From NCBI GenBank assembly GCA_964570075.1, contig CAZMWF010000122.1:1-52507 (forward strand): 52,507 nt of DNA, read 5' to 3'. The position numbers and the translations under genes were made by a program. The notes beneath the pieces were generated by a model that was given only the letters and a program-made list of their open reading frames with translations, was not told where the DNA came from and searched no databases. The stretch is from an uncultured Syntrophaceae bacterium (GTDB lineage Bacteria > Desulfobacterota > BSN033 > UBA1163). This document shows positions 3,435-47,184 of this stretch, piece after piece (positions within the stretch are counted from its first letter, which is position 1; every line of letters starts with the position of its first letter).

Positions 3435-5552
3435 ATGTATACGGATTATGGTTACATGGAGGAAGGGAAATTAGGAAGACCCTATGATCTCAGGCTGATG
3501 ATGGGGTTGAGGAGATTTCTCTCTCCTTATAAAAAATGGATCGGACTTTCTCTCCTCTTCGTTTTGATGATGACGGCTCTGGATTTATCCATTCCCTATC
3601 TCACTAAAGAAGCCATTGATCGGTATATCCTTGTCTCTGCGAGGGAAGTTTATTTGAGTCAGAAAGGATCCCCCGAGGAAGAGGAATTAATCGAAAGATA
3701 TCGTTGCTTTTTTATTCCCACAAAAGAGAAAGGGCGGTTTTTTCTCTCTCCAGAAGTGGCGAGAAAGATGGACCGAAGGGAGATGTCTCGATTCCAAAAG
3801 GCCGGTCTCCTCACGGAGAAGCGATACACTCCCTTCCACCCCTCCGATGAGAAAGACCTCTCATTCATCTCCAAGTACCCTTCTTTTTTTGAAAAGGGTG
3901 GGCCGCATTGGTTCATTCCTTTCGATCGAGTGAAAGAGATGGAGAAGGAGGATCGAATCCTCCTTCGAAGAAAAGACATCCAAGGGCTTCTCCACTTGGT
4001 CCTTCTCATGCTCGGGATCCTGGCGTTTCATTTTGGGTTAAACTTCTTTCAGGTCTATACGATGGAGATCGCCGGACAGAGAATGATGCATGATTTGAGA
4101 ATGGAGCTCTTTAGCCACCTCCAAACCCTTCCTACCGCTTTCTTTGAGAAGAACCCTGTTGGAAGATTGGTCACTCGACTCACCAATGACATTCAGAATG
4201 TCCATGAGATGTTTACCTCTGTCCTGGTCTACCTTTTTAAAGATCTCATCCTCCTCTTAGGAATTATTTTCCTTCTCCTTTATCTCCATTTAGAATTGGC
4301 CCTCATTTCCTTTATCGTTCTTCCTCTCATCTTCTTTACCACGTTTGTTTTTAGTCATCGAGCCAGGGATGCCTTTCGGGAGATCCGCTTTAAGATTGCC
4401 CAGATGAATGCCTTCCTCCAGGAAAATTTTTCAGGGATTCAGGTGGTTCAGCTCTTTCGACGAGAAGGGCAACAGGCCAGGCGTTTCCAAAAGATCAATG
4501 AGGATCACTGTGAGGCCAATCTCAGGCAGATCTCCATTTATGCCTTTTTTGTTCCTCTGGTAGAAGTGTTGAATTCAGGAGCCATCGGTCTTTTGGTCTG
4601 GTACGGAGGAGGGAAGGTCATTCAGGAGGCGATCAGCCTGGGGGTGCTGGTTGCCTTTCTTTCTTATCTTCGTATGTTTTTTCAACCCATTCGGGATCTC
4701 TCAGAAAAATATAATGTGATGCAATCGGCCATCGCCTCTTTGGAAAGGATCTTTGGCCTTCTTGAGACAGAGGGAAGGGAAAAGACCTTTCCTTCCCCCC
4801 GTGAAGTACCGATAAAGGGACGGATCGATTTTCAGGGGGTTTCTTTTGCCTATGATGAAAGGGAGAGAGTCCTTCACGAAGTCTCCTTCTCGATCAAGGA
4901 AGGTGAGATTGTAGCCATTGTGGGACCAACAGGAGCTGGGAAGACCTCTCTCCTCCTGCTTCTTGAGAGATTTTATGATCCCCAGGAGGGATCGATTTTC
5001 ATAGATGGGATCGATCTTCGACAATGGGATCCAAAAACCCTTCGTTCCCAGATAGGGTTTGTCATGCAGGATCCCTTTCTTTTTTCAGGGAATATCATCG
5101 AAAATATCCGACTCGGCAATGGAGAGGATGTAGAACGGGTCAAAGAAGTAGCTCGGATGGTGAGAGCGGATCCGTTCATTAGAAGGCTTCCGAGAGGATA
5201 TGAGACTCTCGTCGGGGAAGGAGGAGAGAGATTATCGGCGGGAGAACGTCAGCTTCTGGCCTTTGCAAGGGCTTTGTATCAACATCCCAGAATTCTCCTT
5301 TTGGATGAAGCCACCTCCCATGTGGATCCGGAAACCGAACATTGGATTCAAGAAGGATTAAAAGTCCTTTTCAAAAACAGAACGGTCCTGGTCGTGGCTC
5401 ATCGCCTGACGACCATCCACCGTGCGGATCGGATCATTGTCCTTCATAAAGGTCGAGTTCGGGAGATGGGAACCCATCGTGAGTTGATCCAGAAAAAGGG
5501 GCTCTATTTTCGACTCTATCAACTCCAGTTTTCTCATTCCATCAAACATTGA
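3435..5552 (+). CDS. ABC exporter, fused permease/ATPase, the partner half-transporter, with a large TM1-TM2 loop insert
   Basis: 705 aa with Walker A GPTGAGKTS, signature LSAGERQ and Walker B ILLLDEATS. About 120 hydrophilic residues lie between the first two TM helices. Confidence 0.9.
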   Translation: MYTDYGYMEEGKLGRPYDLRLMMGLRRFLSPYKKWIGLSLLFVLMMTALDLSIPYLTKEAIDRYILVSAREVYLSQKGSPEEEELIERYRCFFIPTKEKGRFFLSPEVARKMDRREMSRFQKAGLLTEKRYTPFHPSDEKDLSFISKYPSFFEKGGPHWFIPFDRVKEMEKEDRILLRRKDIQGLLHLVLLMLGILAFHFGLNFFQVYTMEIAGQRMMHDLRMELFSHLQTLPTAFFEKNPVGRLVTRLTNDIQNVHEMFTSVLVYLFKDLILLLGIIFLLLYLHLELALISFIVLPLIFFTTFVFSHRARDAFREIRFKIAQMNAFLQENFSGIQVVQLFRREGQQARRFQKINEDHCEANLRQISIYAFFVPLVEVLNSGAIGLLVWYGGGKVIQEAISLGVLVAFLSYLRMFFQPIRDLSEKYNVMQSAIASLERIFGLLETEGREKTFPSPREVPIKGRIDFQGVSFAYDERERVLHEVSFSIKEGEIVAIVGPTGAGKTSLLLLLERFYDPQEGSIFIDGIDLRQWDPKTLRSQIGFVMQDPFLFSGNIIENIRLGNGEDVERVKEVARMVRADPFIRRLPRGYETLVGEGGERLSAGERQLLAFARALYQHPRILLLDEATSHVDPETEHWIQEGLKVLFKNRTVLVVAHRLTTIHRADRIIVLHKGRVREMGTHRELIQKKGLYFRLYQLQFSHSIKH

Positions 5553-5573
5553 AAGGGTGAATCGACGTTCTTC

Positions 5574-5808
5574 GTAATGCCTCACTGAAGCGGGGAAATC
5601 ATTTTAAGCCCGACAGGAGTATTTCCGAAACCCATAGAACGCGGATGGATTGAATATAAATAGAGTATACGAATCGATCCATTGTTGAAATGGGCTTCTG
5701 ATTAAAACCAACCAAAGTAAGGAGTTCTATGGACCATTTAAGGTAGCCGCACTTTGGGTTTCTCCAATACCCCTCTCGGGCTTATTCCCCATCTGAGTGA
5801 GGGATTAC
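5574..5808 (+). mobile_element. MITE copy B (full length, 235 bp)
   Basis: Termini are GTAATGCCTCAC ... GTGAGGGATTAC. A perfect 8-bp direct repeat CGTTCTTC flanks it at 5566-5573 and 5809-5816. It has no ORF and is about 85-90% identical by eye to copies A, D and F. Confidence 0.9.
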
Positions 5809-5827
5809 CGTTCTTCCTACCTCTGGG

Positions 5828-5857
5828 TTGACAAATGATTCCCCTTCATCCTATATA
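5828..5857 (+). promoter_or_regulatory. Sigma-70-like promoter, possibly producing a leaderless mRNA
   Basis: TTGACA (5828-5833), an 18-nt spacer, then TATATA (5852-5857). The ATG at 5864 lies 6 nt after the -10 and has no Shine-Dalgarno sequence. Confidence 0.5.
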
Positions 5858-5863
5858 GTGAGT

Positions 5864-6073
5864 ATGGAGGAAGAAAAAGAGGGACCCTCAAAGGAGATTT
5901 CATCGGGAGAGAAGAAGCGAGAGATCGACCTCAATGCCCTCTTCCCGGAAAGGGGGTATGATCTCAATCGACTTTTTCCAGATGACGAAACCAAGAGGTT
6001 TCTCTATGAATTGAAGAGAAACAAAAAGGAGATTGAACGATTGATCAAGAGCCTTGATCTTGAGGAGGATTAG
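5864..6073 (+). CDS. Small acidic hypothetical protein, probably coiled-coil
   Basis: 69 aa counted from ATG 5864. The track ORF starts at TTG 5828, which coincides with the -35 hexamer. The sequence is rich in K, E and D. Its TAG stop abuts the ATG of the next ORF. Confidence 0.4.
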   Translation: MEEEKEGPSKEISSGEKKREIDLNALFPERGYDLNRLFPDDETKRFLYELKRNKKEIERLIKSLDLEED

Positions 6074-6298
6074 ATGAGATGCCCTCAATGTGAGACCCTC
6101 CTTCCATTTATTCTCTGTGAGGTATGTGGTGGGGAGACACCGGAAGGAAGCCACTATTGTTGTCAATGTGGTCATCCTCTGAGCAGAGAAGAGACGGAAA
6201 AGAGTCTCTCTGAGAGGATTCCTTGCGTGGATGGGACCTGTATCGGAACAATCAATGAAAAAGGCGTCTGCAGTATTTGTGGAAAGCCTTATCCATAG
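6074..6298 (+). CDS. Zinc-ribbon domain protein
   Basis: 74 aa with CxxC pairs: CPQC, CEVC, CCQC and CSIC. Its start is immediately adjacent to the upstream stop, which suggests translational coupling. Confidence 0.6.
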   Translation: MRCPQCETLLPFILCEVCGGETPEGSHYCCQCGHPLSREETEKSLSERIPCVDGTCIGTINEKGVCSICGKPYP

Positions 6299-11097: not shown

Positions 11098-11127
11098 ACT
11101 ATATAATTTTTTAAAAAATAATTTCAA
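11098..11127 (-). promoter_or_regulatory. Sigma-70-like promoter, apparently leaderless, for the transglutaminase-like gene
   Basis: On the minus strand: TTGAAA (11127-11122), an 18-nt spacer, then TATAGT (11103-11098). Seven nt follow, then ATG at 11090, with no Shine-Dalgarno sequence. Confidence 0.45.
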
Positions 11128-11137
11128 TAGTTAGACC

Positions 11138-11254
11138 GTAATCCCTAACTCAGAAGCGGGGGAATAAGCCCGAGAGGGATGTTGAGCGTTCTATGGGTTT
11201 CGGAAATACTCCTGTCGGGCTTCAATTCATTTCCACTCTTCGACGAGGGGTGAC
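11138..11254 (-). mobile_element. MITE copy C (internally deleted, 117 bp)
   Basis: It keeps both end modules (GTAATCCCTAAC...AAGCCCGAGAGG and CCTGTCGGGCTT...GAGGGGTGAC) but lacks about 118 bp of core. Flanking 8-mers are GTTAGACC (11130-11137) and GTTAGATC (11255-11262), a 7/8 match. The latter contains the ecfT stop codon. Confidence 0.8.
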
Positions 11255-11255
11255 G

Positions 11256-12050
11256 TTAGATCCGATTAGGGAAAATCGCTCCGAGGGTTAACCCAATTCT
11301 CAAATAGAGGATTAAAAGGAGTCCCCCGATAAGACTGAGAAGGATGAAATAATCTATTCTTCTCATACGAGATTCGTAATAGAAGGTCCGTTTTGCTTCG
11401 GGATTAAATCCTTTCGATTCCAAGGCGATCGCCAAAAGATTGGTGTATCGGATAGCATAAATCAAAAGAGGGACGGCTTGAGGGATAAACTTTCGAAATC
11501 GACTAAAAATAGACCCCGATTCTAAATTTAAGCCCCGGGAGATCTGGGCCTGGATGATGGTCGCTCCAGCCCCTACAAAAGTAGGGATGAGTCTCAATGA
11601 GGTCGAGAGAGCAAAGGCTATGGGATAGGGAGTTTTCATTCGAATGAGTCCATGGATGAGTTCTTCGTGCCTCGTCGTCGAAAGAAAGACCAGTCCCGTA
11701 GCGACAAAATTAGAGAGCCGAAGACCCATCGCTAAGCCATACAGGAAGGACTCCTGACTCACTTCGAGTCCTTTCCAGGAGAAGAGAGGGCGTGGTCCTT
11801 TAATGAAGAAAGGCCATATCAAGGTACTGAAGAGGAAAAGCAACAGAAGGACGAACCGGAATCGGTAAAGGTTTAGCATGGCTCGTGAAAAAAAGGCGAG
11901 GGCAAGAATGACCAAACTTATCACCCATAGATAAAGAGGGTGGTTAAAACAGAGAGAATAGATAAAAAGGATGAGGGTTCCAAGAATTTTAGTCAGAGGA
12001 TCCAGACGATGGACTAAGGTTTTTTGGTCAAGATAAAGAAAAAGATTCAT
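11256..12050 (-). CDS. ecfT: ECF transporter transmembrane (T) component
   Basis: 264-aa polytopic membrane protein directly downstream of the duplicated ECF-type ATPase. Its size and position fit CbiQ/EcfT. Confidence 0.7.
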   Translation of the reverse strand: MNLFLYLDQKTLVHRLDPLTKILGTLILFIYSLCFNHPLYLWVISLVILALAFFSRAMLNLYRFRFVLLLLFLFSTLIWPFFIKGPRPLFSWKGLEVSQESFLYGLAMGLRLSNFVATGLVFLSTTRHEELIHGLIRMKTPYPIAFALSTSLRLIPTFVGAGATIIQAQISRGLNLESGSIFSRFRKFIPQAVPLLIYAIRYTNLLAIALESKGFNPEAKRTFYYESRMRRIDYFILLSLIGGLLLILYLRIGLTLGAIFPNRI

Positions 12051-14582: not shown

Positions 14583-14611
14583 AATATATTAAAAAAATGA
14601 TAAGATGTCAA
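14583..14611 (-). promoter_or_regulatory. Sigma-70-like promoter of the ECF operon
   Basis: On the minus strand: TTGACA (14611-14606), a 17-nt spacer, then TATATT (14588-14583). The -35 overlaps the last 3 nt of the target duplication of MITE copy D. Confidence 0.6.
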
Positions 14612-14616
14612 AAAGG

Positions 14617-14850
14617 GTAATCCCTCACTCAGATGGGGAATAAGCCCGAGAGGGGTATTGGAGAAACCCATGATGCGGCTACCTTAAATGGTCCATAGAA
14701 ATCTTAACTTCCGTTTGTTTTAATCAGAAACCCATTTCTACGATAGATCGATTCGTATTCCTTAAACATATAAATTGATCCGCACTCTATGGGTTTCGGA
14801 AATACTCCTGTCGGGCTTAAATTTATTTCCACCCTTCAGTGAGGGATGAC
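14617..14850 (-). mobile_element. MITE copy D (full length, 234 bp)
   Basis: On the + strand the termini read GTAATCCCTCAC ... GTGAGGGATGAC. A perfect 8-bp direct repeat CAAAAAGG flanks it at 14609-14616 and 14851-14858. It has no ORF. Confidence 0.9.
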
Positions 14851-14975
14851 CAAAAAGGATATTGGTTAAAATCTTTTTCAAAACTAAAAGGAGCAGATTC
14901 AAAGTGAGGGTTTATTGAGATTCTTTATGGGATATGATATGAAATTTGATTATAAAGATGATGGAGGAGTTGAAA

Positions 14976-15380
14976 ATGATTCAAGCCATTTCTATAAAAA
15001 GCTCAAAACAGATAGAATTCATTGACATCACTCATCGGGTTCAAGAAGTGGTCGTCAAGACGGGTGTCAAAGAGGGAGTCTGCGTCATCTTTGTCCCTCA
15101 TACCACTGCAGGAGTGACCATCAATGAAAATGCAGATCCCAGTGTCATTCAAGATATCATTATGGGATTAAATAAAATCGTTCCGTTTAAGGATCCATAT
15201 CTTCATCGAGAAGGAAACTCTCCTGCCCATATAAAGTCAAGTTTAGTCGGATGCACACTGAATGTCATGATCGAATCTGGGAGACTCAGTCTTGGAACTT
15301 GGCAAGGGATCTTTTTCTGCGAATTTGACGGCCCGAGAAGTCGGAAGGTCCATGTCAAAGTCATCCCGGATGGGCGATGA
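14976..15380 (+). CDS. yjbQ: YjbQ/UPF0047-family protein (secondary thiamine-phosphate synthase family)
   Basis: Motifs FIDITHRV, PHTTAGVTINENADP and SPAHIKSSL. GGAGG lies 8 nt upstream of ATG 14976; the track ORF starts 30 nt earlier. Confidence 0.85.
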   Translation: MIQAISIKSSKQIEFIDITHRVQEVVVKTGVKEGVCVIFVPHTTAGVTINENADPSVIQDIIMGLNKIVPFKDPYLHREGNSPAHIKSSLVGCTLNVMIESGRLSLGTWQGIFFCEFDGPRSRKVHVKVIPDGR

Positions 15381-15383
15381 ACC

Positions 15384-16154
15384 ATGGACTTCAAAGCATT
15401 GATCGATAGAGCAGCCGAGATATTGGAGAAAGAGCCCCGATTAATTCATCTTCCTTCGGAAGGGAAGGCCGTTTTTGTCGGGGATACCCATGGGGATCTG
15501 GATGCCTCGCAGAAGGTGGTCTCCCATTATCTAAAGAGTCCTTATCGAATTATTTTTCTCGGGGATTATGTCGATCGAGGTGAAGAATCGGAAGCCAATA
15601 TTCTTTTCCTCCTCCAGAAGAAGATAGAACATCCGGACCGGCTCTTTCTCCTTTCAGGGAATCACGAGGGATTTGTGGTCAAAGCCCTCTATCCTGCAGA
15701 CTTCTGGGAATCCCTTTCCCATGAGAAGAGGGGAATTTATGGGAGGGTTTTTTCAAAACTTCCCCTTTCCGCGACGACCGAAAATGGAATTTTAGCCCTT
15801 CATGGGGGGCTGCCCGATCTCAATCGTCTTGAAGAGATCAATCGAATCGAGATTGGAGGAGAGCAGTGGGATAGAATCGTTTGGGGAGATTTCGTGGAGA
15901 AGAGGAATGGATGGCTGGGAAATCTTTGGGGAAGACCCCAATTTGGAGAATCCTATTTTGAGACCTTGATGCAAAGGTATCAAAAAAAGGTGTTGATCCG
16001 CTCCCATCAACCTCATGCCCCCCTATGGATGTTTAAAAAGAAATGCATCACCATCTTTACCTCTTATGCCTATCTTCCCATCCGAACGATCGTCGTCGCT
16101 GATCTGGAGCGCGAGATTCGGGACGGAGGGGATCTTAGCATTGAAAGGATATAG
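15384..16154 (+). CDS. PPP-family metallophosphoesterase (Ser/Thr phosphatase-like)
   Basis: GDTHGD, GDYVDRG and GNHE motifs. Confidence 0.85.
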   Translation: MDFKALIDRAAEILEKEPRLIHLPSEGKAVFVGDTHGDLDASQKVVSHYLKSPYRIIFLGDYVDRGEESEANILFLLQKKIEHPDRLFLLSGNHEGFVVKALYPADFWESLSHEKRGIYGRVFSKLPLSATTENGILALHGGLPDLNRLEEINRIEIGGEQWDRIVWGDFVEKRNGWLGNLWGRPQFGESYFETLMQRYQKKVLIRSHQPHAPLWMFKKKCITIFTSYAYLPIRTIVVADLEREIRDGGDLSIERI

Positions 16155-16181
16155 GATATAGATTGAAGTTGGAGTGAGACG

Positions 16182-16847
16182 ATGCCCAAAATCATCTCCT
16201 TTGATATGGATGGAACATTGGTGGATTCCTCGTTTACAGATTGGGTGTGGATGCATGGCCTTCCTAAACTTTATGCGGAGAAAGTGGGTCTTTCCTTTGA
16301 AGAGGCAAAACTCCATGTGGTAAGGGAGTACGAAAAAGTGGGGGAGGGGGCTATCGAGTGGTATGATATCCAATACTGGCTAAGATTCTTTGGACTCAAT
16401 CATGATTGGAGATCCCTGCTTCAATCCTATGTGGATAAAATTCGGGTTTATGAGGATGTAAATCATCTTCTTGACCGGTTGAAAGACCGCTACGCGTTGA
16501 TCCTGACTTCCAATGCGGGGAAAGAATTTATCGAGATAGAGATGGAAGCCACGGGGCTTGGAAGGTATTTTCGACATGTCTTTTCTGCCACTTCGGATTA
16601 TCGGACGGTCAAGAAGACGGCTGACTTCTACAGACGGGTCTGTAACGTCCTTCAAGTGGAACCCCATGAGATCCTCCACATTGGGGATCACTACGAATTT
16701 GACTATCTGGTCCCTACTTCCGTTGGGATGAAGGCCTTCTTTCTTGACCGGAGTGGTAAAGAAAAAGGGGACCATATCCTTCACTCTCTTAAAGAATTAG
16801 AGAAGAAAATTCTTCTCGAATCAGATGGAAAGGAATATCCCTCCTAA
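16182..16847 (+). CDS. HAD-superfamily hydrolase
   Basis: Motif I FDMDGTL (DxDxT), plus a C-terminal GDHYEFD motif. Confidence 0.8.
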   Translation: MPKIISFDMDGTLVDSSFTDWVWMHGLPKLYAEKVGLSFEEAKLHVVREYEKVGEGAIEWYDIQYWLRFFGLNHDWRSLLQSYVDKIRVYEDVNHLLDRLKDRYALILTSNAGKEFIEIEMEATGLGRYFRHVFSATSDYRTVKKTADFYRRVCNVLQVEPHEILHIGDHYEFDYLVPTSVGMKAFFLDRSGKEKGDHILHSLKELEKKILLESDGKEYPS

Positions 16848-18093
16848 AATTCATTGGGCCTGGGTCCTGCTGGGGGTCAGTTTTATCACCCTCTTTATAA
16901 ATTATAGTATCCGGATCGGAGCCTACTCCATCCTTCTTCCCAAGATGATCAAAGACCTTCATATTAATTTAACCCAAGCAGGAATGATTCGGGGATCCTA
17001 TTTTATGGCCTATATCGTTTTTTCACCATTGATGGGATGGTTAAGTGACCGTATAGGTCCCAGATGGGTCATCAGCTTTTTTTCTCTCATTCTGGGAATA
17101 GGAACTTTTCTGATGGGGAAGGCTTCCAGTCTTTCTATGGCCATCCTCTTTCATGCTATTGTAGGGATAGGATCTTCGGCAATGTGGACCCCTGTGGTGG
17201 GGATGATCCAGAAATGGTTTGGAATGAAGAAACGGGGTTTAGCCCTTGGAATCCTTTCCCCAAGCTACGCCTTGGGGTATGGCTTAATGGGAATGATTCT
17301 TCCCTCTATTGTCTCTACCTATGATTGGAGAATGGGGTGGACCCTTTTGGGTGTTTCATGTCTCCTCCTCGTTTTATTCAATAGTTTTCTTCTTCGAAAT
17401 GATCCCGAGGAGATGAGGCTTCTTCCTTGGGGCGAGACCTCCAAAAGGAGTGAATTTGCCTCTCCCACTTCTCGATTTCGTTATAATGAGATTTTTAAAG
17501 AAAGGGCATTCTGGGTGATCGGATTCTCTTACCTTCTGGTCTCGTTTGGAGCCTATATCCTTACGGATTTAGTCGTCTCCTATGGAGTGATGGAATTAAA
17601 ACTCCCCTACGCCATCTCTTCCCGATTCATTTCGATTCTCGCCTTTACTGGTATTGCTGGAGGATTGTTCTGGATGGCCCTCTCCGATCATTTAGGGAGA
17701 AAGAAATCGCTTCTCATCCTTCATTCCTCCCTCGCCTTAAGTATTTTATGGATCATTTTGGTAAGAGGGGAGGTTTGGTGGTTACAGATGGGAATAGGAT
17801 TCTTTGGTTTTTTCTATAGTCCTGTCTGGCCCATGTATGGAGCCTGTGCTCGTGACTATTTTCCAAAAGAAGTCGTCGGTTCGGTCATTGGCCTCTTGAC
17901 CTTTTTTTATGGGATAGGAGCTATTCTGGGTCCCATCATCGCAGGGAGATTGGCGGATAGTAGTGGAACTTTTCGATGGTCCTTTGCCTTGGCTTCCTTC
18001 TGCTGTTTGATGGCTTCTATAGTCATTGGCCTTCTTAAGGGAAGAAAAAGGGCTTATTCCTCACCTCTGAGTGAGGGGTTACAGGAAGATTGA
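16825..18093 (+). CDS. MFS transporter
   Basis: 422 aa with about 12 TM helices. It overlaps the HAD gene by 23 nt. Its last ~13 codons are encoded by a MITE end fragment. Confidence 0.85.
   Translation: MERNIPPKIHWAWVLLGVSFITLFINYSIRIGAYSILLPKMIKDLHINLTQAGMIRGSYFMAYIVFSPLMGWLSDRIGPRWVISFFSLILGIGTFLMGKASSLSMAILFHAIVGIGSSAMWTPVVGMIQKWFGMKKRGLALGILSPSYALGYGLMGMILPSIVSTYDWRMGWTLLGVSCLLLVLFNSFLLRNDPEEMRLLPWGETSKRSEFASPTSRFRYNEIFKERAFWVIGFSYLLVSFGAYILTDLVVSYGVMELKLPYAISSRFISILAFTGIAGGLFWMALSDHLGRKKSLLILHSSLALSILWIILVRGEVWWLQMGIGFFGFFYSPVWPMYGACARDYFPKEVVGSVIGLLTFFYGIGAILGPIIAGRLADSSGTFRWSFALASFCCLMASIVIGLLKGRKRAYSSPLSEGLQED
18050..18082 (+). mobile_element. Solo MITE 3'-end fragment
   Basis: GGGCTTATTCCTCACCTCTGAGTGAGGGGTTAC matches the 3' end module of the family, including a perfect CCTCAC-N6-GTGAGG hairpin and the GTGAGGGGTTAC terminus. 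The rest of the element is absent. Confidence 0.7.
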
Positions 18094-18117
18094 AAGAGAT
18101 CTTTTCTTTATGATAAT
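18090..18117 (+). promoter_or_regulatory. Sigma-70-like promoter for the response-regulator gene
   Basis: TTGAAA (18090-18095), a 16-nt spacer, then GATAAT (18112-18117). The -35 overlaps the MFS stop codon and starts 7 nt after the solo MITE terminus. Confidence 0.45.
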
Positions 18118-22671: not shown

Positions 22672-22796
22672 GTATTCCCTAACAAGAGGATGGAAATAAA
22701 TTTTAGCCCGACAGGGGTATTTCCGAAACCTATAGAACGTGGATGCATCCTTCAGGCTTATTCTCCACCTCTGAGTGATGGATTCCATTCTTCCAT
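22672..22796 (+). mobile_element. MITE copy E (internally deleted and decayed, 125 bp)
   Basis: GTATTCCCTAAC...TAGCCCGACAGGGGTATTTCCGAAACCTATAGAACGTGGATG joined to CATCCTTCAGGCTTATTCTCCACCTCTGAGTGATGGATTCC. The flanking 8-mers GTTCCCCC and ATTCTTCC match at only 5 of 8 positions. Confidence 0.7.
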
Positions 22797-22832
22797 TATT
22801 ATTCATTGTAGATCCGGGGAGAACGTGTTAAT

Positions 22833-24266
22833 ATGAAAACACGAAAGAGAGGATGGGGGTTCTTTTTGAGGATTCAAAAAAGGGTTTTCATCCTTTTTTT
22901 TACTTTTCTCTTCTTTCTTGGCCACCTCGATCATGACCAGGTCAGAGCCCTGACCACCACCGAGGAGAAGAAGTTAGGAGAGAAGATTCTTCTCGAAATG
23001 GAAAGAAATGTAGAGTGGGTGAGGGACCTTATCCTCGATCATTATATTCGTCAAATAGGGGAAACCTTAGTTTTCCATGCAGGACCGACTCCCTTTGAAT
23101 TCAAGTTTCATCTCATCAAACACTCCGAACCCAATGCCTATGCGATTCCAGGGGGTCATATTTTTTTGACCACGGGTCTGCTCGCCCTGGCAGAGAATGA
23201 GCAGGAGCTTGCAGGGGTGATCAGTCACGAAATCGCCCATGTGATGGCCCGACACGTGGCCAAGATGATCGAGAGGTCGAAGCGAATCAACATCGCCACC
23301 ATGGCTGCCATCCTGGCTGGAGTACTCGTAGGAGGAGGGGGGAAGACATCAGAAGCTGTGGCTACGACGGCGATGGCCACGGCAGAAGCCCTCGCCTTAA
23401 AATATACTCGGGAGATGGAGATTGAAGCAGATCAAAACAGTCTTCGATACATGATCAAGTCGGGTTATGACCCCCACGGGCTGATGACATTTATGAATAA
23501 GATTTATAAATTGAGCCTCACTTCGTCCCCTAAAATTCCTATCTACCTTTCGACCCATCCCGCTATTGAAGATCGAATCTCTCTCATGGAAAATCTTCTT
23601 CAAACCGTGTCTAAGTCTGAAACCCCCTTTCGAACCGCAGGGAACTATGAGAAGATTCAAGCCAGGGCTCTGGTAGAGGATCGAGAGCCTCGAGTTGCTG
23701 TCATCCATTTTCAGTCCCTGGTGGATGAGGGCTCGAAAAAGGTAGAGGCCTATTATGGCTTGGGACTCGCTTATCGGAAAATGGGGCGATTCGATAAGTC
23801 GATCGAAGCTTTTCAGTCAGGGTTGAGCTATCATCCCCGAGACCCTGATCTTCTCCGGGAGCTTGGGATTGTTTATTTCCTTTCAGGGAAACCCGAGCAG
23901 GCCTTGAGCTATCTGGAGCCCCTCCTTTCGATCTCTAAAGAGCAGGAGGTAGATCCCTTGACCCTCTTTTATTTAGGGAGGGTTTATCAGGAATTAGGGG
24001 ATGTGAATAGGGCAGGGACCCTTTTTCAAAAAGTTCAAAAGAGGCATCCTGAATTCATCGATGTGTATCATAGCCTTGGATCCATTTATGGGAGGCTCGG
24101 ACAGAAGGGGCTTTCCCACTTCTTTTTCGGGAAGTATTTTAAATTGAAGAGGGATAAAAAGAATGCCCTTCTGCATTTCCGAACTGCCTTAGAAGGGCTG
24201 GAACGAGGAAGCATGGAACGGGAGGAGGCACAAAAGGAAATTAAAGAATTGACATCCTCCCCATAA
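22833..24266 (+). CDS. M48-family Zn metalloprotease with C-terminal TPR repeats (BepA-like)
   Basis: HEIAHV (HExxH) and an N-terminal signal-like hydrophobic stretch, with TPR-like repeats in the C-terminal half. The start could instead be TTG 22866. Confidence 0.8.
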   Translation: MKTRKRGWGFFLRIQKRVFILFFTFLFFLGHLDHDQVRALTTTEEKKLGEKILLEMERNVEWVRDLILDHYIRQIGETLVFHAGPTPFEFKFHLIKHSEPNAYAIPGGHIFLTTGLLALAENEQELAGVISHEIAHVMARHVAKMIERSKRINIATMAAILAGVLVGGGGKTSEAVATTAMATAEALALKYTREMEIEADQNSLRYMIKSGYDPHGLMTFMNKIYKLSLTSSPKIPIYLSTHPAIEDRISLMENLLQTVSKSETPFRTAGNYEKIQARALVEDREPRVAVIHFQSLVDEGSKKVEAYYGLGLAYRKMGRFDKSIEAFQSGLSYHPRDPDLLRELGIVYFLSGKPEQALSYLEPLLSISKEQEVDPLTLFYLGRVYQELGDVNRAGTLFQKVQKRHPEFIDVYHSLGSIYGRLGQKGLSHFFFGKYFKLKRDKKNALLHFRTALEGLERGSMEREEAQKEIKELTSSP

Positions 24267-27063: not shown

Positions 27064-27969
27064 TCATCCCCAGCGCCAGAGGGCGATAACGAAAGTGATG
27101 AGGAAGACCAGAATAAGATTCATATAGGCCATGAAGTAGAAGACTTTTTCAGGAGAGGCGGCACTCGGGGATTCTTTCTCTAATATCAACTCCCCTACCA
27201 GAGGTAAAGAAAGGATCTTTTCTTCACCATGGGGTGCAGTTTGAAGAAGATCCGTTAAGTCACTTCCTGCTGGATGTTTCCTCATATGAGTCCCTTCTTT
27301 CCAGAGTGGACTCGCCGTTGCGTCATAAATCTTTCCCTTATAGGCAAAATAGGCAGGTCTTCCCTCCTTTCCATCGAAGAAGGTTAATCCCTTAAGAGAA
27401 AATCTTCCCTCCTCTGAATAAGGAGAAGTGGCCTTTTGCCTTTTCATTTTGGGGCCAAGGATAAAAGTCACAATTCCGGCCGAAGTGACCATGATAGCAA
27501 AAAGGATGATTTTTAGACTCAGGAGGATTCCAAATCGGGTTGTGTAGAAAGTAGACCAACTGGGGATTCGGGAGAGGGTTAAGAGGACTCCGCTAATGGA
27601 GAGCACGAGGATGGCGGTCCATCCGAGGATGAGTTCTCCTTTGGGCAATCCCTTCGCCGCATAGGCCGGTTTCAACAGGAGATGGACATAGAGGATCGTT
27701 CCAAACCAGGTGATGGCCATGAGAAGATGGAGGTAACCTATCATAAGACGGACGACTTTCTGGAAGGGTTTCAGAGGACGGTGTAACCCTTTAGCCTTCA
27801 ATTCCTCCCGGAAGGATTCTCCCTCTCTTGTCAGTTTCCCTCCTGTGCCTTCGAGATGACATCGAAGACACTCCGCTCCTGTTTGTTCCGCATATTCAGG
27901 GGTCGCCCTGGAGAGTTGAGGGAAGAGGAGAAGAAGCAGAGTGACTATGATTATAGCGTTTCTCATCAT
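27064..27969 (-). CDS. Fusion protein: monohaem cytochrome c, CopD-like 4-TM domain and cytochrome b5-like/haem-steroid-binding domain
   Basis: Signal peptide, CLRCH, four TM helices, then GRPAYFAYKGKIYDATASPLWKEGTHMRKHPAGSDLT (a COG4892-like b5 fold), then a final TM helix. Confidence 0.6.
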   Translation of the reverse strand: MMRNAIIIVTLLLLLFPQLSRATPEYAEQTGAECLRCHLEGTGGKLTREGESFREELKAKGLHRPLKPFQKVVRLMIGYLHLLMAITWFGTILYVHLLLKPAYAAKGLPKGELILGWTAILVLSISGVLLTLSRIPSWSTFYTTRFGILLSLKIILFAIMVTSAGIVTFILGPKMKRQKATSPYSEEGRFSLKGLTFFDGKEGRPAYFAYKGKIYDATASPLWKEGTHMRKHPAGSDLTDLLQTAPHGEEKILSLPLVGELILEKESPSAASPEKVFYFMAYMNLILVFLITFVIALWRWG

Positions 27970-27974
27970 CCCAT

Positions 27975-29066
27975 TTAGACCCCAAAGGAGATTCCAACCG
28001 AACGAGCCACTTTAATGAGAGGATGATTCAGAGGAACTCTCCTTGGTCCTCTGGCTACTTCTTTCAAGGGGACATCGATCAGTGATTCTCCTTTCACCCC
28101 AACCATATAGCCAAACTTTTTCTCCCTTACCATTTCCATTGCTCTTACACCCAGTCGTGTGGCCAAGACTCGGTCAAAGGCGGTAGGAGTACCTCCCCGG
28201 AGGAGATGTCCCATGACCACTGTTCTTGTCTCAAGACCAGTGAGCTCCTCGATCTGACGACCCAGGACAAACCCAATTCCCCCAAGTCGAATAGGATCTG
28301 AGCTTTCCTTGACAATCCTCTGAATGACGACCTCCCCCCCTTTGGGTTTTGCCCCTTCTGCTACGACAAGGATACTGAACCTCTTTCCTCTTTTATTTCT
28401 TTCTTTTACCTTATCACTGACGATATCCACCTCGTAAGGAATTTCAGGAATAAGAAGAATGTCCCCCCCTCCAGCAACCCCTGAATAGAGGGCGACCCAT
28501 CCGGATCGATGTCCCATGACCTCCACAATCATCACCCGGTGGTGGGATTGGGCAGTCGTATGAATCCGATCGATTCCTTCTGTAGCGATGGAGAGGGCAG
28601 AGTCGAATCCAAAGGTGATCTCGGTTCCCCTGAGATCGTTATCGATCGTTTTAGGGACTCCAATCACTGGAATTCCGTCCTTAAAAAGTTGATGGGCAAT
28701 GCCCAGAGTCCCGTCTCCTCCTATACAGATCAGAGCATTTATCTCAAGATCTTTCAGATTCTTTATGGCCACCCTGGAGAGGTCTTTAAACTCCAGTTCG
28801 CCGTCTTTCTTAACAGGATATCGATAGGGATTGGCTATCTTGGACGTTCCCAGTATCGTTCCTCCCTGGGTGAGAATTCCCGAGACATCATCGTACTGTA
28901 GAATCCGATACCGATTTTCCACCATTCCGTGATACCCATCCTCAATCCCTATGACCTCAGCCTCTTCCTCAAGAATCGCTTTTTTGGCCACAGCCCGAAT
29001 CACGGCATTGATGCCCGGGCAATCTCCTCCTCCCGTAAGAATCGCAATCCTCTTCCTTTTTCTCAT
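27975..29066 (-). CDS. pfkA: 6-phosphofructokinase
   Basis: GGGDCPGINAVIR, IGGDGTLG and PKTIDND motifs. Confidence 0.9.
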   Translation of the reverse strand: MRKRKRIAILTGGGDCPGINAVIRAVAKKAILEEEAEVIGIEDGYHGMVENRYRILQYDDVSGILTQGGTILGTSKIANPYRYPVKKDGELEFKDLSRVAIKNLKDLEINALICIGGDGTLGIAHQLFKDGIPVIGVPKTIDNDLRGTEITFGFDSALSIATEGIDRIHTTAQSHHRVMIVEVMGHRSGWVALYSGVAGGGDILLIPEIPYEVDIVSDKVKERNKRGKRFSILVVAEGAKPKGGEVVIQRIVKESSDPIRLGGIGFVLGRQIEELTGLETRTVVMGHLLRGGTPTAFDRVLATRLGVRAMEMVREKKFGYMVGVKGESLIDVPLKEVARGPRRVPLNHPLIKVARSVGISFGV

Positions 29067-29073
29067 TGGTTCC

Positions 29074-29631
29074 TCACTCCACGGTAAGATATTTTTTAAT
29101 GGATTGGAATTTCGCTTCGCCGATCCCCTTTACCTCTTTGAGTTCTTCCACCGATCGGAATCCTCTCCGTTTTTGTCGGTAGGCGATGATTTCCTGAGAT
29201 AAGGATTCCCCTATTCCTGGGATGAGTGAAAGGTCTTCAGGTGAAACCCGATTGAGGTCCAGGGGAAGGGAGAAGACCAAAAGTTTATAAGCCTCCATCC
29301 TTCCTATATTGATGGTGATTTCATCGGGCGATCTTTTTTTAATCGTAATTCGAGTTCCTGAGGGTAAGGTCTCAGAGGAAAGTTCCTCAGCGAAGCGAAT
29401 GGATTCTTTAAATCCTCCCGCCTTTTGGACGAGCTCTCTCAGAGTGGGTGGATGGTGAAACAGGTAGATGCCGGGGCGATGAATCTCCCCCTCAATTTCG
29501 ACCGCGATCTCTTGGATCTTCTGTTCGGGAGGGAGGAAAGGAGGATGAAAGAATTTGAAATAAAGAAGGAGCAGGATCAAAAAGGATAAACCCCAAAGGA
29601 TCCACTGCTGACTCAGAGAAAAGGATCTCAA
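29074..29631 (-). CDS. comEA: ComEA-family DNA-binding protein (SLBB domain plus helix-hairpin-helix)
   Basis: N-terminal TM helix, with C-terminal HhH motifs LIPGIGESLSQEI and VKGIGEAKF. Confidence 0.8.
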   Translation of the reverse strand: MRSFSLSQQWILWGLSFLILLLLYFKFFHPPFLPPEQKIQEIAVEIEGEIHRPGIYLFHHPPTLRELVQKAGGFKESIRFAEELSSETLPSGTRITIKKRSPDEITINIGRMEAYKLLVFSLPLDLNRVSPEDLSLIPGIGESLSQEIIAYRQKRRGFRSVEELKEVKGIGEAKFQSIKKYLTVE

Positions 29632-29632
29632 T

Positions 29633-31210
29633 TTAGCGCTCTTCTTCTTTCAAGAGTTTATAGTCGATGGAGTCCACCAGGGCTTGCCAGCTTGCTTCGA
29701 TGATATTTTCGGAGACCCCCACCGTTCCCCAAACCGAGGTCCCATCTCCAGATTCGATCAATACCCTGGTTCGGGCTGCTGTTCCCTCCTTGGAAGAAAG
29801 AATCCTCACCTTATAATCGAGAAGTTTAACGGAACGAAGCTCGGGATAGAATTTCTCCAGGGCCTTTCGAATCGCGTGGTCCAAGGCGTTGACGGGTCCA
29901 TTTCCTACGGCGGCGGTATGTTCAATCCGGTCTCCCACTCGGACCATAATCGTCGCTTCAGAGAAGGGGGGTGCCCCTTCTTCCCTCTTTTCGACAATCA
30001 CTCGAAATCCTAAGAGTTCAAAAAATTTCTTATGTTGCCCTAAAGCCTTCTTCATAAGGATTTCAAAAGAACCTTCGGCTGCCTCAAATTGAAACCCTTC
30101 GTGCTCCAGCCTTTTCAGATGGTCCAGAATCCTTCTGACCCTCGGCTCCTTGCTTTCCAGATCGATTCCGAATTCCACAGCCTTGTAAAGAATATTGGAC
30201 TCCCCCGAAAGGTCGGAAATCAGGACCCTCTGCCTGTTACCTACCTTTTCGGGAGGGATATGTTCGTAGGTGCTTGCATTCTTGCGAATGGCACTGACAT
30301 GAATCCCTCCTTTATGGGCAAAGGCACTTTCCCCCACATAGGGAAGGTTTTTGGGATGGGGGAGGTTGGCTAACTCCGATATAAAACGAGACACTTCGGT
30401 GATTTTTCTAAGCTGTTCGTCAGTGATGCAGTGGATTCCCATCTTCAATTTTAAGTTAGGGAGGATGGAGCATAGGTTGGCATTCCCGCACCTTTCCCCA
30501 TAGCCATTCATCGTTCCCTGGATGAGAGAGATTCCCTCCCGAACGGAAAGGATGGTGTTGGCCACAGCCATTTCTGTATCGTTATGGACGTGAATGCCTA
30601 AAGGAGTGTGGATCTTTTTTTTCACTTCTTGGACGATAGGAAGAAGCTCATAAGGGAGGGTTCCTCCATTGGTATCGCAGAGGACAATCCAGTCCGCCCC
30701 TGCATGCTCTGCGGTACGCAGGGTTTTTAAGGCATAGAGAGGATTGTTTTTGAACCCGTCAAAAAAATGCTCCGCATCGAAGAGAACCTCGGGCACCCAT
30801 TTTTTTAGAAATCGAATGGATTGGTCAATCATTTCGAGATTGGCTTCCAGAGGGATCTGGAGGGCCTCCAAAACATGTTTGTCCCAGGCCTTTCCAAAAA
30901 TGGTCACCGCCTGGGTCCGAGCTTCAAGAAGGCTTTGAAGGTTTGGATCCTCCTCCGGCGGGACTCCTGGCCGGGAGGTGCTTCCGAAAGCGACGATTCG
31001 AGCCTGCTGGAGCGGAATGGATTTAATTTCCTGGAAGAATTGAAGGTCTTTCGGGTTGGATCCCGGCCAACCCCCTTCGATGTAGTGGATCCCTAACTCA
31101 TCCAGTTTTTGGGCAATTCGGATCTTATCTTCGACCGTGAAGGCAATGTCTTCCCCCTGAGACCCATCGCGAAGGGTGGTATCATAAATTTTAAGGTCAT
31201 CCCTCTTCAT
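29633..31210 (-). CDS. cimA: Citramalate synthase / LeuA-family HMGL-like enzyme
   Basis: 525 aa with [12 protein letters not shown]. Its length and C-terminal regulatory domain are typical of CimA-type enzymes. Confidence 0.8.
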
Positions 31211-32445
31211 TTTTCTTCTGTGATGGCCGGTTTGTCGAGTTCAAAGGCATCGTGGAGGGCTCGAACAGCCAATTCCGTATATTTAGAGTCAATGATACAG
31301 GAGATCTTAATCTCCGAGGTAGAAATCATCTGAATGTTGATTCCCTCTTTGGCTAAGGCAGAGAACATCTGAGAGGCCACATTGGAGTGACTTCTCATCC
31401 CGACCCCTACGATAGAGACCTTGGCAATATTTTCGTCCGAGAGAACCTCTTTTCCGCCGATCTCTTTGACCGTTTCTTTTACAATCTGGAGAGCCTTTGG
31501 AAAATCAGGTTTGGGGACGGTGAAGGCCACATCGGCATATCCTTTATCCGTGCTCGAAGTCTGGATGATCATATCGACGACGATATTCGCCTCTGCAATA
31601 GGCTTAAATAATTTAGCCGCTATGCCTGGGATATCGGGAACTCGCATCACCTCAATCTTTGCCTCGTTTTTATTATAAGTAACCCCTGAGACGACTACCC
31701 TTTCCATTTCTTCTTCCTCCTTACAAACAATCGTTCCTGGATTCTCATTGAAGGATGATCGGACATGAATAGGCACATTATATTTTTTGGCAAACTCCAC
31801 CGAACGGATTTGAAGGACTTTTGCTCCAAGACTGGCCATCTCGAGCATTTCGTCATAGGAGATCTTCGAGAGTTTTCTTGCCTTCGGATAGATATTGGGA
31901 TCGGTCGTGTAGATCCCATCCACATCCGTGTAGATTTCACATATATCGGCTTTTAACGCGGCCGCAATAGCGACCGCTGTGGTATCGGAACCCCCTCGCC
32001 CTAAGGTCGTAATATTGCCCTCTTCATCCACCCCCTGGAACCCAGCGACCACCACCACTCGTCCTTCTTTTAAATCTTCAAAAATCTTTTCGGATTCGAT
32101 TCCGGTGATCCGAGCCTTTCCGAAGGCGCTGTCCGTGGCAATCTTTATTTGAAAACCCAGATAGGATTTTGCATCACATCCCATCGATTTAAGCGTGATG
32201 GCGAGCAAGGCCACGGAGACCTGCTCGCCTGTCGAGATGAGGACATCCAATTCCCTCTCATCCGGGGTCGGGGTGACTTCTTGAGCCATGCGGATAAGCT
32301 TATCCGTCTCTCCAGCCATTGCGGAGACGACCACCACGACCTGATTCCCCTCGTTTTTAGTGCGGATGACCCGTTGAGCGACATGTTTAATTCGTTGAAT
32401 ATCGCCTACCGATGTCCCCCCATATTTTTGAACAATCAATGCCAT
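31207..32445 (-). CDS. lysC: Aspartate kinase
   Basis: VQKYGGTSV and GRGGSDTTA motifs, with C-terminal ACT domains. It has a 4-nt overlap with cimA. Confidence 0.95.
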
Positions 32446-32949
32446 TTAGGACCCCCCTTTCGGAAGTGACTCCAAACCCACAAACCTGAGCTCTGACCTC
32501 AATGTGTTCAAAAGTTCTTCGTACCTTTCTCCTTTGGCTACCAGTTCAATCGATCGAGTTTGTTTCCCAGTATAATAAAGAGAGATCGATAAGAGTTCAA
32601 CGGGAAGCAGGGATGGAATTTTATCTGCCCATTCAATGGCGGTAACTCCTTTTCCCTGGAAATACTCTTCCAATCCTAACCCTTCCGCTTCCCTTTCATC
32701 CTTGATTCGATAAAGATCGATATGATAAAAGGGAATCTTTCCGATGTATTCGTTCACCAAAACGAAAGAAGGGCTGGTAAGATAGGACGCCCTTTTCACT
32801 CCCACTCCTGAGGCTAACCCCTTGATCAGTTGGGTTTTCCCTGTTCCTAATTCTCCAACCAGAGCGATGACATCCCCCTCCTGAAGTCGCTTTCCTATCC
32901 TCTTTCCCAAACGAGTGGTTTCAGATGGACTCCTCGAGTGAAGCAACAA
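32446..32949 (-). CDS. tsaE: tRNA t6A biosynthesis ATPase TsaE
   Basis: 167 aa with the GELGTGKT P-loop and HIDLYR motif. Confidence 0.85.
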   Translation of the reverse strand: MLLHSRSPSETTRLGKRIGKRLQEGDVIALVGELGTGKTQLIKGLASGVGVKRASYLTSPSFVLVNEYIGKIPFYHIDLYRIKDEREAEGLGLEEYFQGKGVTAIEWADKIPSLLPVELLSISLYYTGKQTRSIELVAKGERYEELLNTLRSELRFVGLESLPKGGS

Positions 32950-33043
32950 ATCTCCAATCCCTCAGCCTTCTCCCCTTCCTCCCGTGGATAGGCTTGCCAG
33001 ATATCGGCTCTTTCATTAGAGCGAAGAGGTTTTCGTTTTTTAT

Positions 33044-33517
33044 TCAGGCCTTATATTTAAAGTCATCTGGATTGAGGTTTTCGAGCCATTCCTTGAGTTG
33101 ATCCTCTTCTTTCTCCATATCAATGGTTCGTGCTTTTTCAATGACCTGCTCTGAGACGAAGATGGGTGCATCGACGGCCAGGGCGATCGCAATGGCATCG
33201 CTGGGACGCGAGTCGATGATGATTTCTTCCCCTCTTCGATTGAGATAGATGAGGGCATAGTAGGTATTCTCCTTGAGATCGTTGACCACCACCTTCATCA
33301 CCTGAGAGTCCAGTTGTCTGAGAATGCTGTGGATAAGATCGTGAGTCATTGGACGCTGAGAATCAATCTTTTTCAGTTTCATGGCAATCGCATTGGCTTC
33401 AAAAGGTCCGATCCAGATGGGGAGCCCCGTTTTATTAGCCAGATCCATCAGGAGAACCACAAATCCATTCGTCGTGGAGTCGAAGGTTAAAAATTTAACT
33501 TTCATTTCGATTAACAT
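33044..33517 (-). CDS. Bifunctional nuclease (BFN/DUF151) family protein
   Basis: LPIWIGPFEANAI, RPMTHDL and DSRPSDAIAIAL motifs. Confidence 0.8.
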   Translation of the reverse strand: MLIEMKVKFLTFDSTTNGFVVLLMDLANKTGLPIWIGPFEANAIAMKLKKIDSQRPMTHDLIHSILRQLDSQVMKVVVNDLKENTYYALIYLNRRGEEIIIDSRPSDAIAIALAVDAPIFVSEQVIEKARTIDMEKEEDQLKEWLENLNPDDFKYKA

Positions 33518-33535
33518 CCGTCTACTCCTTTCCTT

Positions 33536-34681: not shown

Positions 34682-34692
34682 AAAAACCCCTC

Positions 34693-36243: not shown

Positions 36244-36623
36244 CCGTTCCCCTCTAATAGGACATGAGCCACGGCATAGGGATAGTCGTGGGAAAGAGTG
36301 AGAAACGTTCTTTCTACCCTATAGGTAAGGAGGATCTCCTTTGCCTTTCGATGCAGGGAGAGAAAAGGTTTCCCCATTGGGTCATTTTCCACCTCTATAT
36401 CTCTCCAGCGAATTCCATTTCGTAGCCCTAATCCCAGGGCCTTCAAAAAGGCCTCCTTGGCCGCGAATCTTATGGCAAAGCATTCAGAAGGGTGATGCTT
36501 CTGCTGACACCAAGAGATCTCTTTCTCTGTATAGACACGGTTGAGGAAAAGGGTTCCCCACCGGGACAGAACCCGTTCCATTCTCTCGATATTGACAATA
36601 TCAATCCCGCTGCCTACGATCAT
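36240..36623 (-). CDS. acpS: Holo-ACP synthase
   Basis: 127 aa with GIDIVNIERM and FAAKEAFLKA. It has a 4-nt overlap with nnr. Confidence 0.9.
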   Translation of the reverse strand: MIVGSGIDIVNIERMERVLSRWGTLFLNRVYTEKEISWCQQKHHPSECFAIRFAAKEAFLKALGLGLRNGIRWRDIEVENDPMGKPFLSLHRKAKEILLTYRVERTFLTLSHDYPYAVAHVLLEGNG

Positions 36624-36664
36624 CCGTAGTGGAGTCAGGGTTCGGAGGCTTGGCTCCGACCGGG

Positions 36665-37384: not shown

Positions 37385-37400
37385 AATCCCTCCCTATCCA

Positions 37401-38753: not shown

Positions 38754-38795
38754 TTTCTTTCCCTATAGATAGAAATTTAGGGTTCTCTTCATCCC

Positions 38796-39998: not shown

Positions 39999-40029
39999 CT
40001 CACCTTCTTCAAATCGAATCCAGAGGGTC

Positions 40030-41853: not shown

Positions 41854-41979
41854 ATTAACATAATTGTCTTTTTAATTCAATATTCAATACTTAAGCCAAC
41901 GGGGTTGAGAAAAATAGGGTCAAAGCCTCGATTTTAATATAAATATTTGAATTTATTGATGATTTTTATAAGACTACGG

Positions 41980-47177: not shown

Positions 47178-47184
47178 CGACCAA

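Follow-up and report, generated by a model that had tools for sequence, protein, structure and literature searches.

Repeat copies in the window and their surroundings

The window, the whole stretch of 52,507 nt analysed here, carries seven members of a single repeat family, either copies or fragments, which were defined by repeat finding, alignment and profile searches. They coincide with the members and positions listed in a previous reading made from the sequence alone. Gene calls were made with a dicodon log-odds caller of our own, for which the long ORFs in the related loci described below served as training set; in the window its calls match the ORF list. A Pfam scan covered 41 of the 47 called genes. 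None of the 41 matches a transposase family: 37 match ordinary housekeeping, transport or signalling families and four short ORFs are without match. The repeats and the promoter-like hexamers in their vicinity are listed below. Offsets are counted outward from the element terminus to the start of the hexamer.

1-198, + strand: copy A, long form, with its 5' part lost at the window start and its 3' end toward an EamA transporter gene (279-1163); no hexamer at offset 19
5574-5808, + strand: copy B, long form of 235 nt, target duplication CGTTCTTC at 5566-5573 and 5809-5816
5828-5857, + strand: promoter beside B, TTGACA at 5828-5833 (offset 19, 3' side), 18-nt spacer, TATATA at 5852-5857
11138-11254, - strand: copy C, short form of 117 nt, duplication at 11130-11137 and 11255-11262
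11127-11122, - strand: TTGAAA beside C (offset 10), with TATAGT up to 11098, upstream of a transglutaminase-like gene
14617-14850, - strand: copy D, long form of 234 nt, duplication CCTTTTTG (element orientation) at 14609-14616 and 14851-14858
14583-14611, - strand: promoter-like site beside D, TTGACA at 14611-14606 (offset 5), 17-nt spacer, TATATT at 14588-14583
14904-14915, + strand: GTGAGGGTTTAT, probable remnant of another 3' terminus
18050-18082, + strand: solo 3'-arm fragment, within the last codons of an MFS transporter ORF (16825-18093)
18090-18095 and 18112-18117, + strand: TTGAAA (offset 7) and GATAAT beside the solo fragment, followed by a sigma-54-dependent response-regulator gene
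22672-22786, + strand: copy E, short form of 115 nt, target duplication degenerate
22806-22834, + strand: promoter-like site beside E, TTGTAG at 22806-22811 (TTG at offset 19), 17-nt spacer, TAATAT at 22829-22834
46929-47165, + strand: copy F, long form, extended by a 12-nt duplication of its own terminus, GTGAGGGGTTAT, at 47166-47177
46921-46928 and 47178-47185: target duplication of F, CGACCAAT
46881-46909, - strand: promoter-like site on the 5' side of F, TTGTCT at 46909-46904 (offset 19), 17-nt spacer, TAAAAT at 46886-46881
47185-47213, + strand: promoter-like site on the 3' side of F, TTGACC at 47185-47190 (offset 7 from 47177), TATCAT at 47208-47213

The hexamers and gaps previously noted beside the 3' termini (5 nt for D, 7 nt for F and for the solo fragment, 10 nt for C, 19 nt for B) are all present. 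The layout beside B is the canonical arrangement of the family. An offset of 19 nt is also observed on the 3' side of E, where the hexamer is weak and an M48 peptidase/TPR gene lies downstream, and on the 5' side of F, where the site precedes a lipid A acyltransferase gene (start at 46853). The 3'-side site of F precedes a histidine-kinase gene and represents the second promoter of this divergent pair. The remaining members (A, C, D and the solo fragment) are exceptions to the 19-nt rule. The promoter-like site beside D, which precedes a QueT/ECF-transporter operon, scores 11/12; in the first 20 kb one other site equals this score and none exceeds it. In the related locus L009 the element junction is found at the 14904-14915 site instead of 14850. 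The duplication of C overlaps the stop codon (11256-11258) of a CbiQ gene. The distance from the 3' end to the downstream start codon, previously given as 36-83 nt, amounts to 40-90 nt and varies with the start chosen.

Anatomy and class of the repeat

Element sizes range from 88 to 283 nt, with one mode at about 235 nt (long form) and another at about 115 nt (short form). The short forms, C and E in the window, lack the centre and are deletion derivatives of the long form. The terminal inverted repeats are imperfect and extend over about 55-70 nt; the 5' end starts with GTAAYCCCTCAC and the 3' end finishes with GTGAGGGATTAC, the family ends being also written as the pair GTAAYCCCTCAC...GTGAGGGRTTAC. 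The 12-mer GTGAGGGATTAC and its variants serve as a marker of the repeat end and occur 22 times in the window with at most 2 mismatches, versus 5.2 expected. The long form folds into a hairpin from either strand (-84 and -87 kcal/mol, z-scores of -6 to -7).

Insertion is accompanied by an 8-bp target duplication. It is perfect in 48 of 126 cases family-wide and matches at 7 of 8 positions in 25 more; the mean number of matches is 5.98, versus 2.4-3.2 in shifted registers. The direct repeats of 8 bases around B, C, D and F in the window (CGTTCTTC for B, CCTTTTTG for D and CGACCAAT for F) are thus genuine target duplications. The duplicated 8-mers show no sequence consensus. The T/C-rich target that four window flanks had suggested does not extend to the family, with 3.88 pyrimidines per 8 positions (p=0.37).

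ORFs lying wholly within copy B encode 25-38 aa only. A 75-aa ORF (5358-5585) covers the first 12 nt of this copy. The repeat is a MITE, a non-coding and non-autonomous DNA transposon: it is small, has terminal inverted repeats and a duplication of fixed length, and occurs as dispersed copies with presence/absence polymorphism. Rfam gave no match at the gathering threshold for the window and none at E<=1 around D, and a BLAST search of the element against a plasmid collection gave no match.

Relatives, copy number and samples

Relatives were collected by scanning a 20-mer of the 5' arm against genome and metagenome contigs, which yielded 148 loci totalling 1.2 Mb. All loci were therefore picked via this conserved 20-mer, and the site collection combines several uncultured genomes that are related to each other. 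Most loci originate from a hot-spring MAG named 'Deltaproteobacteria bacterium' (JBBIMX01), from MAG CALIBK01 and from JGI metagenome contigs. Three of them are about 94-95% identical to parts of the window, which indicates that the organism of the window is a close relative. The sequencing runs that contain window DNA are mostly from hot springs and microbial mats; the remainder comprises a few metagenomes labelled as aquatic, sediment or subsurface and two runs assigned to a coded organism. Contigs from four metatranscriptomes are sparse and lie over the lon gene, with none at the promoter beside B.

Profile searches identified 152 paired copies and 68 solo arms, and clustering of the flanks reduced the window and the 148 loci to 133 independent insertion sites. 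In four metagenomes the summed depth of the element is 70-1200 times that of its flanks, which corresponds to hundreds of copies. A hot-spring bacterium and its relatives therefore carry the family in hundreds of copies.

A fixed distance to promoter-like sites

A TTGACA-like hexamer (at least 5/6 matches) begins exactly at offset 19 from the element terminus, that is, after the 8-bp duplication and 11 further nucleotides. It is found there in 31 of 128 3' flanks and 21 of 128 5' flanks, with about one hexamer per offset elsewhere. With both ends pooled, 52 of 256 flanks have the hexamer at this offset, where 1.4 would be expected from the mean background per offset (Poisson P=4e-61). The peak has a width of a single nucleotide, and counts at offsets 21-37 are close to background. 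Offset 10 is slightly raised (5 of 256 flanks versus 1.4 per offset). The range of 5-19 nt first described for the window copies is therefore not the rule: the family has a single sharp mode, at exactly 19 nt and at either end. A preference for the UP-element position of promoters, which the sequence-only reading had proposed among other possibilities, is supported by this result and sharpened to exactly 19 nt from the -35 hexamer. Among inward-pointing hexamers a small peak at offset 20 was observed, and it is accounted for by the same TTGACA, read with a shift of one base.

For TATAAT-like hexamers the maximum is at offsets 41-43, giving spacers of 16-18 nt. The consensus of 68 offset-19 flanks consists of TT at 13-14, a non-T at 18, TTGACA at 19-24 and T-A-A-n-A-T at 42-47. 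A -10 hexamer accompanies 62% of element-adjacent hexamers, versus 5% of gene-internal and 15% of unoccupied intergenic ones where an insertion would have room (p=9e-13). From either end, start codons are reached after a median of 82-87 nt, a length that accommodates the two promoter hexamers with their spacer plus a leader of about 30 nt. The end of the element would thus be placed at about -55 from the predicted transcription start, and the 8-mer that is duplicated would span about -54 to -47. The context of the insertions is also skewed: 63 occupied gaps are co-directional, 44 divergent and 2 convergent, versus 81, 19 and 9 expected from gaps of at least 60 nt (p=9e-10), as fits promoter targeting.

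With a relaxed criterion (TTG or 5/6 matches at offsets 18-20), 83 of the 133 sites have a hexamer on at least one side, versus 4-10% per flank in control offset windows. No hexamer occurs at 18-20 on either side in about 38% of sites, among them A, C, D and the solo fragment. The 19-nt rule is thus a strong preference and not an absolute one, and the sites without hexamer may respond to another signal or have decayed flanks.

In the same elements the flank opposite the promoter carries no sequence signal, so that recognition is one-sided; a symmetric target signal was rejected on the same ground. Integration of this family is position-specific in the sense that the insertion point keeps a constant distance from a landmark flanking the target on one side.

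Target choice and not survival

Some orthologous sites in other loci are empty, for example E026/L057, E090/L090, E132/L023 and E128/L024, and in these a single 8-mer, the 11-nt spacer and the promoter are present. An empty allele exists for D as well: a 10.6-kb contig of metagenome X3 joins window positions 14608 and 14851 and lacks exactly 234+8 nt. Adjacent copies are spaced by 7-9 nt in 11 of 12 pairs, which implies a second insertion into the same 8-mer. Site C is occupied in the window by a short copy on the minus strand and in L082, between the same flanks, by a long copy on the plus strand. Whole arms are exchanged between the two, so that the difference is not due to a crossover within the inverted repeats. 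Finally, contig ends that exit the element in four metagenomes, a check independent of the locus set, show the consensus hexamer 19 nt from both termini. Because of the empty sites, the tandem re-use of one 8-mer, the one-nucleotide-wide peak and the flank consensus of the metagenomes, the position is set by target choice and not by selection.

Two other origins of the constant spacing were weighed. If insertion were random, the surviving copies would be those that spare genes and core promoters, and they would accumulate upstream of -35 boxes in short gaps. The intergenic gaps are short (background median 35-148 nt) and copies are hardly ever found within genes, as this model predicts. However, the integrity of the promoter would permit any offset beyond 19 nt just as well, and the sharpness of the peak is not explained. 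Nor does survival account for tandem copies spaced by exactly one duplication length or for the independent use of one 8-mer in related strains, so that selection alone is very improbable. Even less credit can be given to a mobile promoter, in which TTGACA and the -10 hexamer would belong to the element and move with it. The constant spacing between element end and hexamer would follow directly, but the 8-bp duplication does not include the hexamer, the 11-nt spacer shows no conservation apart from the TT located 5-6 nt upstream of the hexamer, the promoter occurs on one side and at either end, and 8-mer, spacer and promoter already exist in the empty alleles.

Orientation

The promoter adjoins only the 3' end in 44 sites and only the 5' end in 34 (p=0.31), and in divergent gaps the split is 13:13. 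Co-directional gaps behave differently, with 42:21 in favour of the 3' end toward the gene when scored by gene orientation (n=63, p=0.011) and 25:9 by hexamer side (p=0.009). The 2:1 bias therefore exists only where transcription of the upstream gene can enter the element. The earlier proposal that one particular end faces the co-oriented gene in all cases is correct for the co-directional gaps of the window but not for the family, as shown by the 42:21 ratio and by the inverted occupant of site C in L082.

Selection for promoter modulation is not needed to explain the position, and it may contribute to the co-directional bias. In such a model, acting on top of targeting, copies with the 3' end toward the gene would be retained more often in co-directional gaps by virtue of insulation, modulation or handling of read-through. 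Both co-directional ratios and the even split of divergent gaps, which are free of read-through, are consistent with this. On the other hand, no terminator or promoter is predicted inside copies A-D (first 20 kb), the orthologous copy at site C has the opposite orientation, and the numbers are modest with several tests run. An orientation-dependent RNA structure was rejected since both strands fold alike, which also weakens a modulator role. We regard this additional selection as unlikely.

Proposed mechanism and recognition of the promoter

The best overall explanation, and one in which we place considerable confidence, is that of a promoter-ruler MITE, which takes a sigma-70-type promoter as its landmark. 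A staggered 8-bp cut is made 11 bp upstream of the -35 hexamer of an ordinary sigma-70-type promoter. The element end is then located 19 bp upstream of TTGACA, leaving the core promoter and those 19 bp intact, and the promoter can adjoin either element end. The same 8-mer can be hit again, which generates tandem copies and accounts for different or inverted occupants in related strains. The transposase presumably acts in trans and would be positioned by a factor that recognises the promoter. Such targeting may represent a safe-haven strategy, by which the element multiplies while the genes and core promoters of a compact genome remain undamaged.

Two candidates for this factor have to be compared. 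The transposase could be tethered to the promoter-bound RNA polymerase holoenzyme, by sigma region 4 or the alpha C-terminal domains. Alternatively, the transposase or an accessory selector could read the DNA itself, for instance with a helix-turn-helix resembling sigma region 4 that binds TT-N4-TTGACA, the cut being made 11 bp away without polymerase. The TT located 5-6 nt upstream of the hexamer argues for direct reading, since it is present in 65-69% of occupied sites versus 28-35% of 78 unoccupied promoter-like sites (p=5e-4 and 1e-6). Most of the sequence signal resides in the TTGAC core, and four hexamer-bearing flanks point at the 3' end of a gene. For perfect TTGACA hexamers, moreover, the excess of -10 hexamers is not significant (56% versus 35%, p=0.10).

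In contrast, when all free intergenic TTGAC sites with room for an insertion are used for comparison, the occupied ones are richer in an in-register -10 hexamer (59% versus 28%, p=5e-4) and are more often in promoter position (62% versus 35%, p=0.003). Both excesses, like the 62% versus 15% given above for element-adjacent and unoccupied intergenic hexamers, favour the polymerase tether. In sigma-70 promoter consensus tables conservation decreases in the order TTG > A > C > A. The hexamers beside the element show the same order, which may count against direct reading. The upstream edge of the E. coli polymerase footprint lies roughly 55 bp upstream of the transcription start. Insertion at about 55 bp upstream of the predicted start approximates this edge and was counted in favour of the tether. 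We therefore slightly favour the holoenzyme, as a tentative choice whose probability is a little under one half, while direct reading of the DNA remains a serious competitor, at somewhat less than even chances.

Comparison with known systems

Bacterial MITEs include RUP, Nezha and Chunjie. The present family resembles such elements, for example MITEAba12 (PMC6382973), in being small, non-coding, intergenic and present in high copy number, with inverted repeats, target duplications and presence/absence polymorphism. It differs from them in that the duplication has no consensus and that the position is set instead by a -35 hexamer located 11 bp away, on one side of the target.

The Correia elements (CREE) of Neisseria, to which a resemblance had been suggested, are abundant intergenic MITEs located near promoters and able to affect expression. 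They duplicate TA and carry promoter elements and an IHF site inside their own ends. The abundance, the intergenic location and the closeness to promoters are shared. However, the duplication observed here is 8 bp long and not TA, and the -35 and -10 hexamers lie outside it and predate the insertion, as the empty alleles show. The family is therefore not of the Correia type.

Parallels in target choice are found among the retroelements Ty3 of yeast and TRE5-A of Dictyostelium, which integrate in a position-specific manner beside Pol III genes via TFIIIB. They share with this family the fixed distance from a landmark of transcription initiation and a safe haven that spares genes. These are eukaryotic retroelements with a Pol III tether, whereas the element described here is a bacterial DNA transposon associated with sigma-70-type promoters. 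A holoenzyme-tethered transposase would be the bacterial counterpart of Ty3 and TRE5-A, and the copies would mark, to the nucleotide, which sigma-70-type promoters are active in an uncultured thermophile; this is conceivable, with a probability that we place below one half.

Known targets of bacterial transposons are short motifs, DNA structure, dedicated sites (attTn7, REP, attC) and sites defined by guide RNAs. In Tn7 (TnsD/attTn7) and in CRISPR-associated transposons a one-sided selector also fixes the insertion distance (PMC10370016). These systems insert at a single or guide-RNA-defined site in one orientation, duplicate 5 bp and show target immunity (PMC10370016), while the present family occupies hundreds of sites in both orientations, generates an 8-bp duplication and hits the same 8-mer again without target immunity.

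Insertions upstream of promoter regions are also known for IS5, among others upstream of flhDC and bgl. A further example is the silent E. coli operon fucAO (PMC11894529). The insertions of IS5 differ in being rare, selected activation events at CTAA-type targets, with no fixed distance to the -35 hexamer.

In the part of the literature that was covered, no bacterial transposon is reported at a fixed distance from ordinary -35 boxes. What is new here, to our knowledge, is thus the target rule, the element being in kind an ordinary MITE. The rule would explain how a compact genome tolerates hundreds of copies, since coding sequence and the promoter up to about -55 are spared. It offers free promoter annotation for organisms that cannot be cultured, and it makes a long-standing question, whether the transcription machinery guides DNA transposition, testable in bacteria. 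Insertions also sever promoters from factors bound beyond -55, so that regulation may be rewired on a large scale.

Search for the parent transposase

An autonomous partner combining the same ends with a transposase was not found in the window or in the 1.2 Mb of related loci. Several candidates were rejected. The solo 5' arms correspond to truncated or mini copies beside a ribonucleotide reductase gene, a Fur-like ORF (named by eye from its translation) and a tRNA gene. Pairs of the terminal 15-mer located 0.5-6 kb apart represent neighbouring MITEs only. In L136 an IS3-family transposase lies beside a 22-nt MITE-like tip; comparison with L149 places the element end at L136:2953 and the tip at 2823, 130 nt apart, so that the two are unrelated. 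If found, the transposase could be developed into a tool for inserting DNA directly upstream of promoters.

The ends of this family are not accompanied by an IS66-type transposase in the loci analysed. Elements of the IS66 family have ends in GTAA and an 8-bp duplication (ISfinder). The ends of the MITE likewise start with GTAA and its duplication has the same length, a resemblance that concerns the ends alone and makes IS66 a lead for the parent element.

Occupancy of orthologous sites

Site C is occupied differently in two related genomes within shared flanks. In the window, the site (11130-11262, target duplication included) carries a 117-nt copy of the element on the minus strand, while in the orthologous locus L082 the copy is 237 nt long and lies on the plus strand (L082:143-379). 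These copies point to a single target that would have been re-used independently, or to an excision followed by re-insertion.

Site F is occupied by the long form in the window (46929-47177) whereas its orthologue (L033:5795-5908) has a short form whose 5' tip is degraded. Long and short forms likewise replace one another at several further orthologous sites (clusters 2, 4, 7 and 13, grouped by their flanks), and many different deletion junctions are found among the metagenome contigs. Additional terminus-like sequences accompany copies F and D:

47166-47177: GTGAGGGGTTAT, 12 nt that repeat the 3' terminus and separate copy F from its target duplication
14904-14915: GTGAGGGTTTAT, resembling a remnant 3' terminus and separated by 53 nt from the 5' end of copy D

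The duplicate next to copy F is missing in the L033 orthologue. The leftover-like terminus next to copy D is directed toward the UPF0047 gene, and the D region may have been hit more than once by the element.

The D-side flank also appears in another context. L009, a contig of 2080 nt from the hot-spring MAG JBBIMX01 (labelled 'Deltaproteobacteria bacterium'), was compared over its whole length with window positions 11105-11137 and 14903-16824. Here a short copy links the D-side flank (from 14903) to a sequence resembling the 3' flank of copy C. This junction would reflect either deletion of the ECF-transporter operon by recombination between C and D or a chimeric assembly across the repeat.

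Position relative to promoters and genes

The fixed 19-nt spacing between an element end and the TTGACA-like -35 hexamer downstream of it perhaps extends beyond protein-coding genes, since a mini copy (L048:10891-11100) has its 3' end at exactly this distance upstream of a TTGACA preceding a putative tRNA gene (tRNA-like as judged by eye). At another locus (L066, insertion site E113), two divergent hexamers were just 26 nt apart before insertion (9+8+9) and the element lies exactly midway between them, with an offset of 17 on each side. Both promoters may have influenced the position of this insertion.

The solo 3' fragment (18050-18082) provides the final codons of the MFS transporter ORF, whose stop codon (18091-18093) comes just past the fragment. 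In the CbiQ gene, the stop codon is overlapped by the target duplication of copy C (11255-11262). The extreme 3' ends of genes are therefore within reach of insertions. No copy of the element occurs in a stretch of about 20 kb of densely packed genes on one strand (27064-46853), which fits with a scarcity of promoters within operons.

Downstream of copy B (region 5852-6298), the -10 element of the promoter ends 6 nt ahead of the ATG (5864) of a 69-aa ORF, whose mRNA could be leaderless. It is followed by a 74-aa cysteine-rich, zinc-ribbon-like ORF (6074-6298) and then by lon. Neither ORF between this promoter and lon has a Pfam match.

An IS3-family insertion sequence (HTH_Tnp_1 ORF and rve transposase; within L136:2823-4043 and L149:520-1913) is common across thermophile metagenomes. 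In L136 it is 130 nt away from a 22-nt MITE-like tip, itself located 19 nt from a TTGACA, and 2845-2950 is the stretch between the insertion sequence and the tip.
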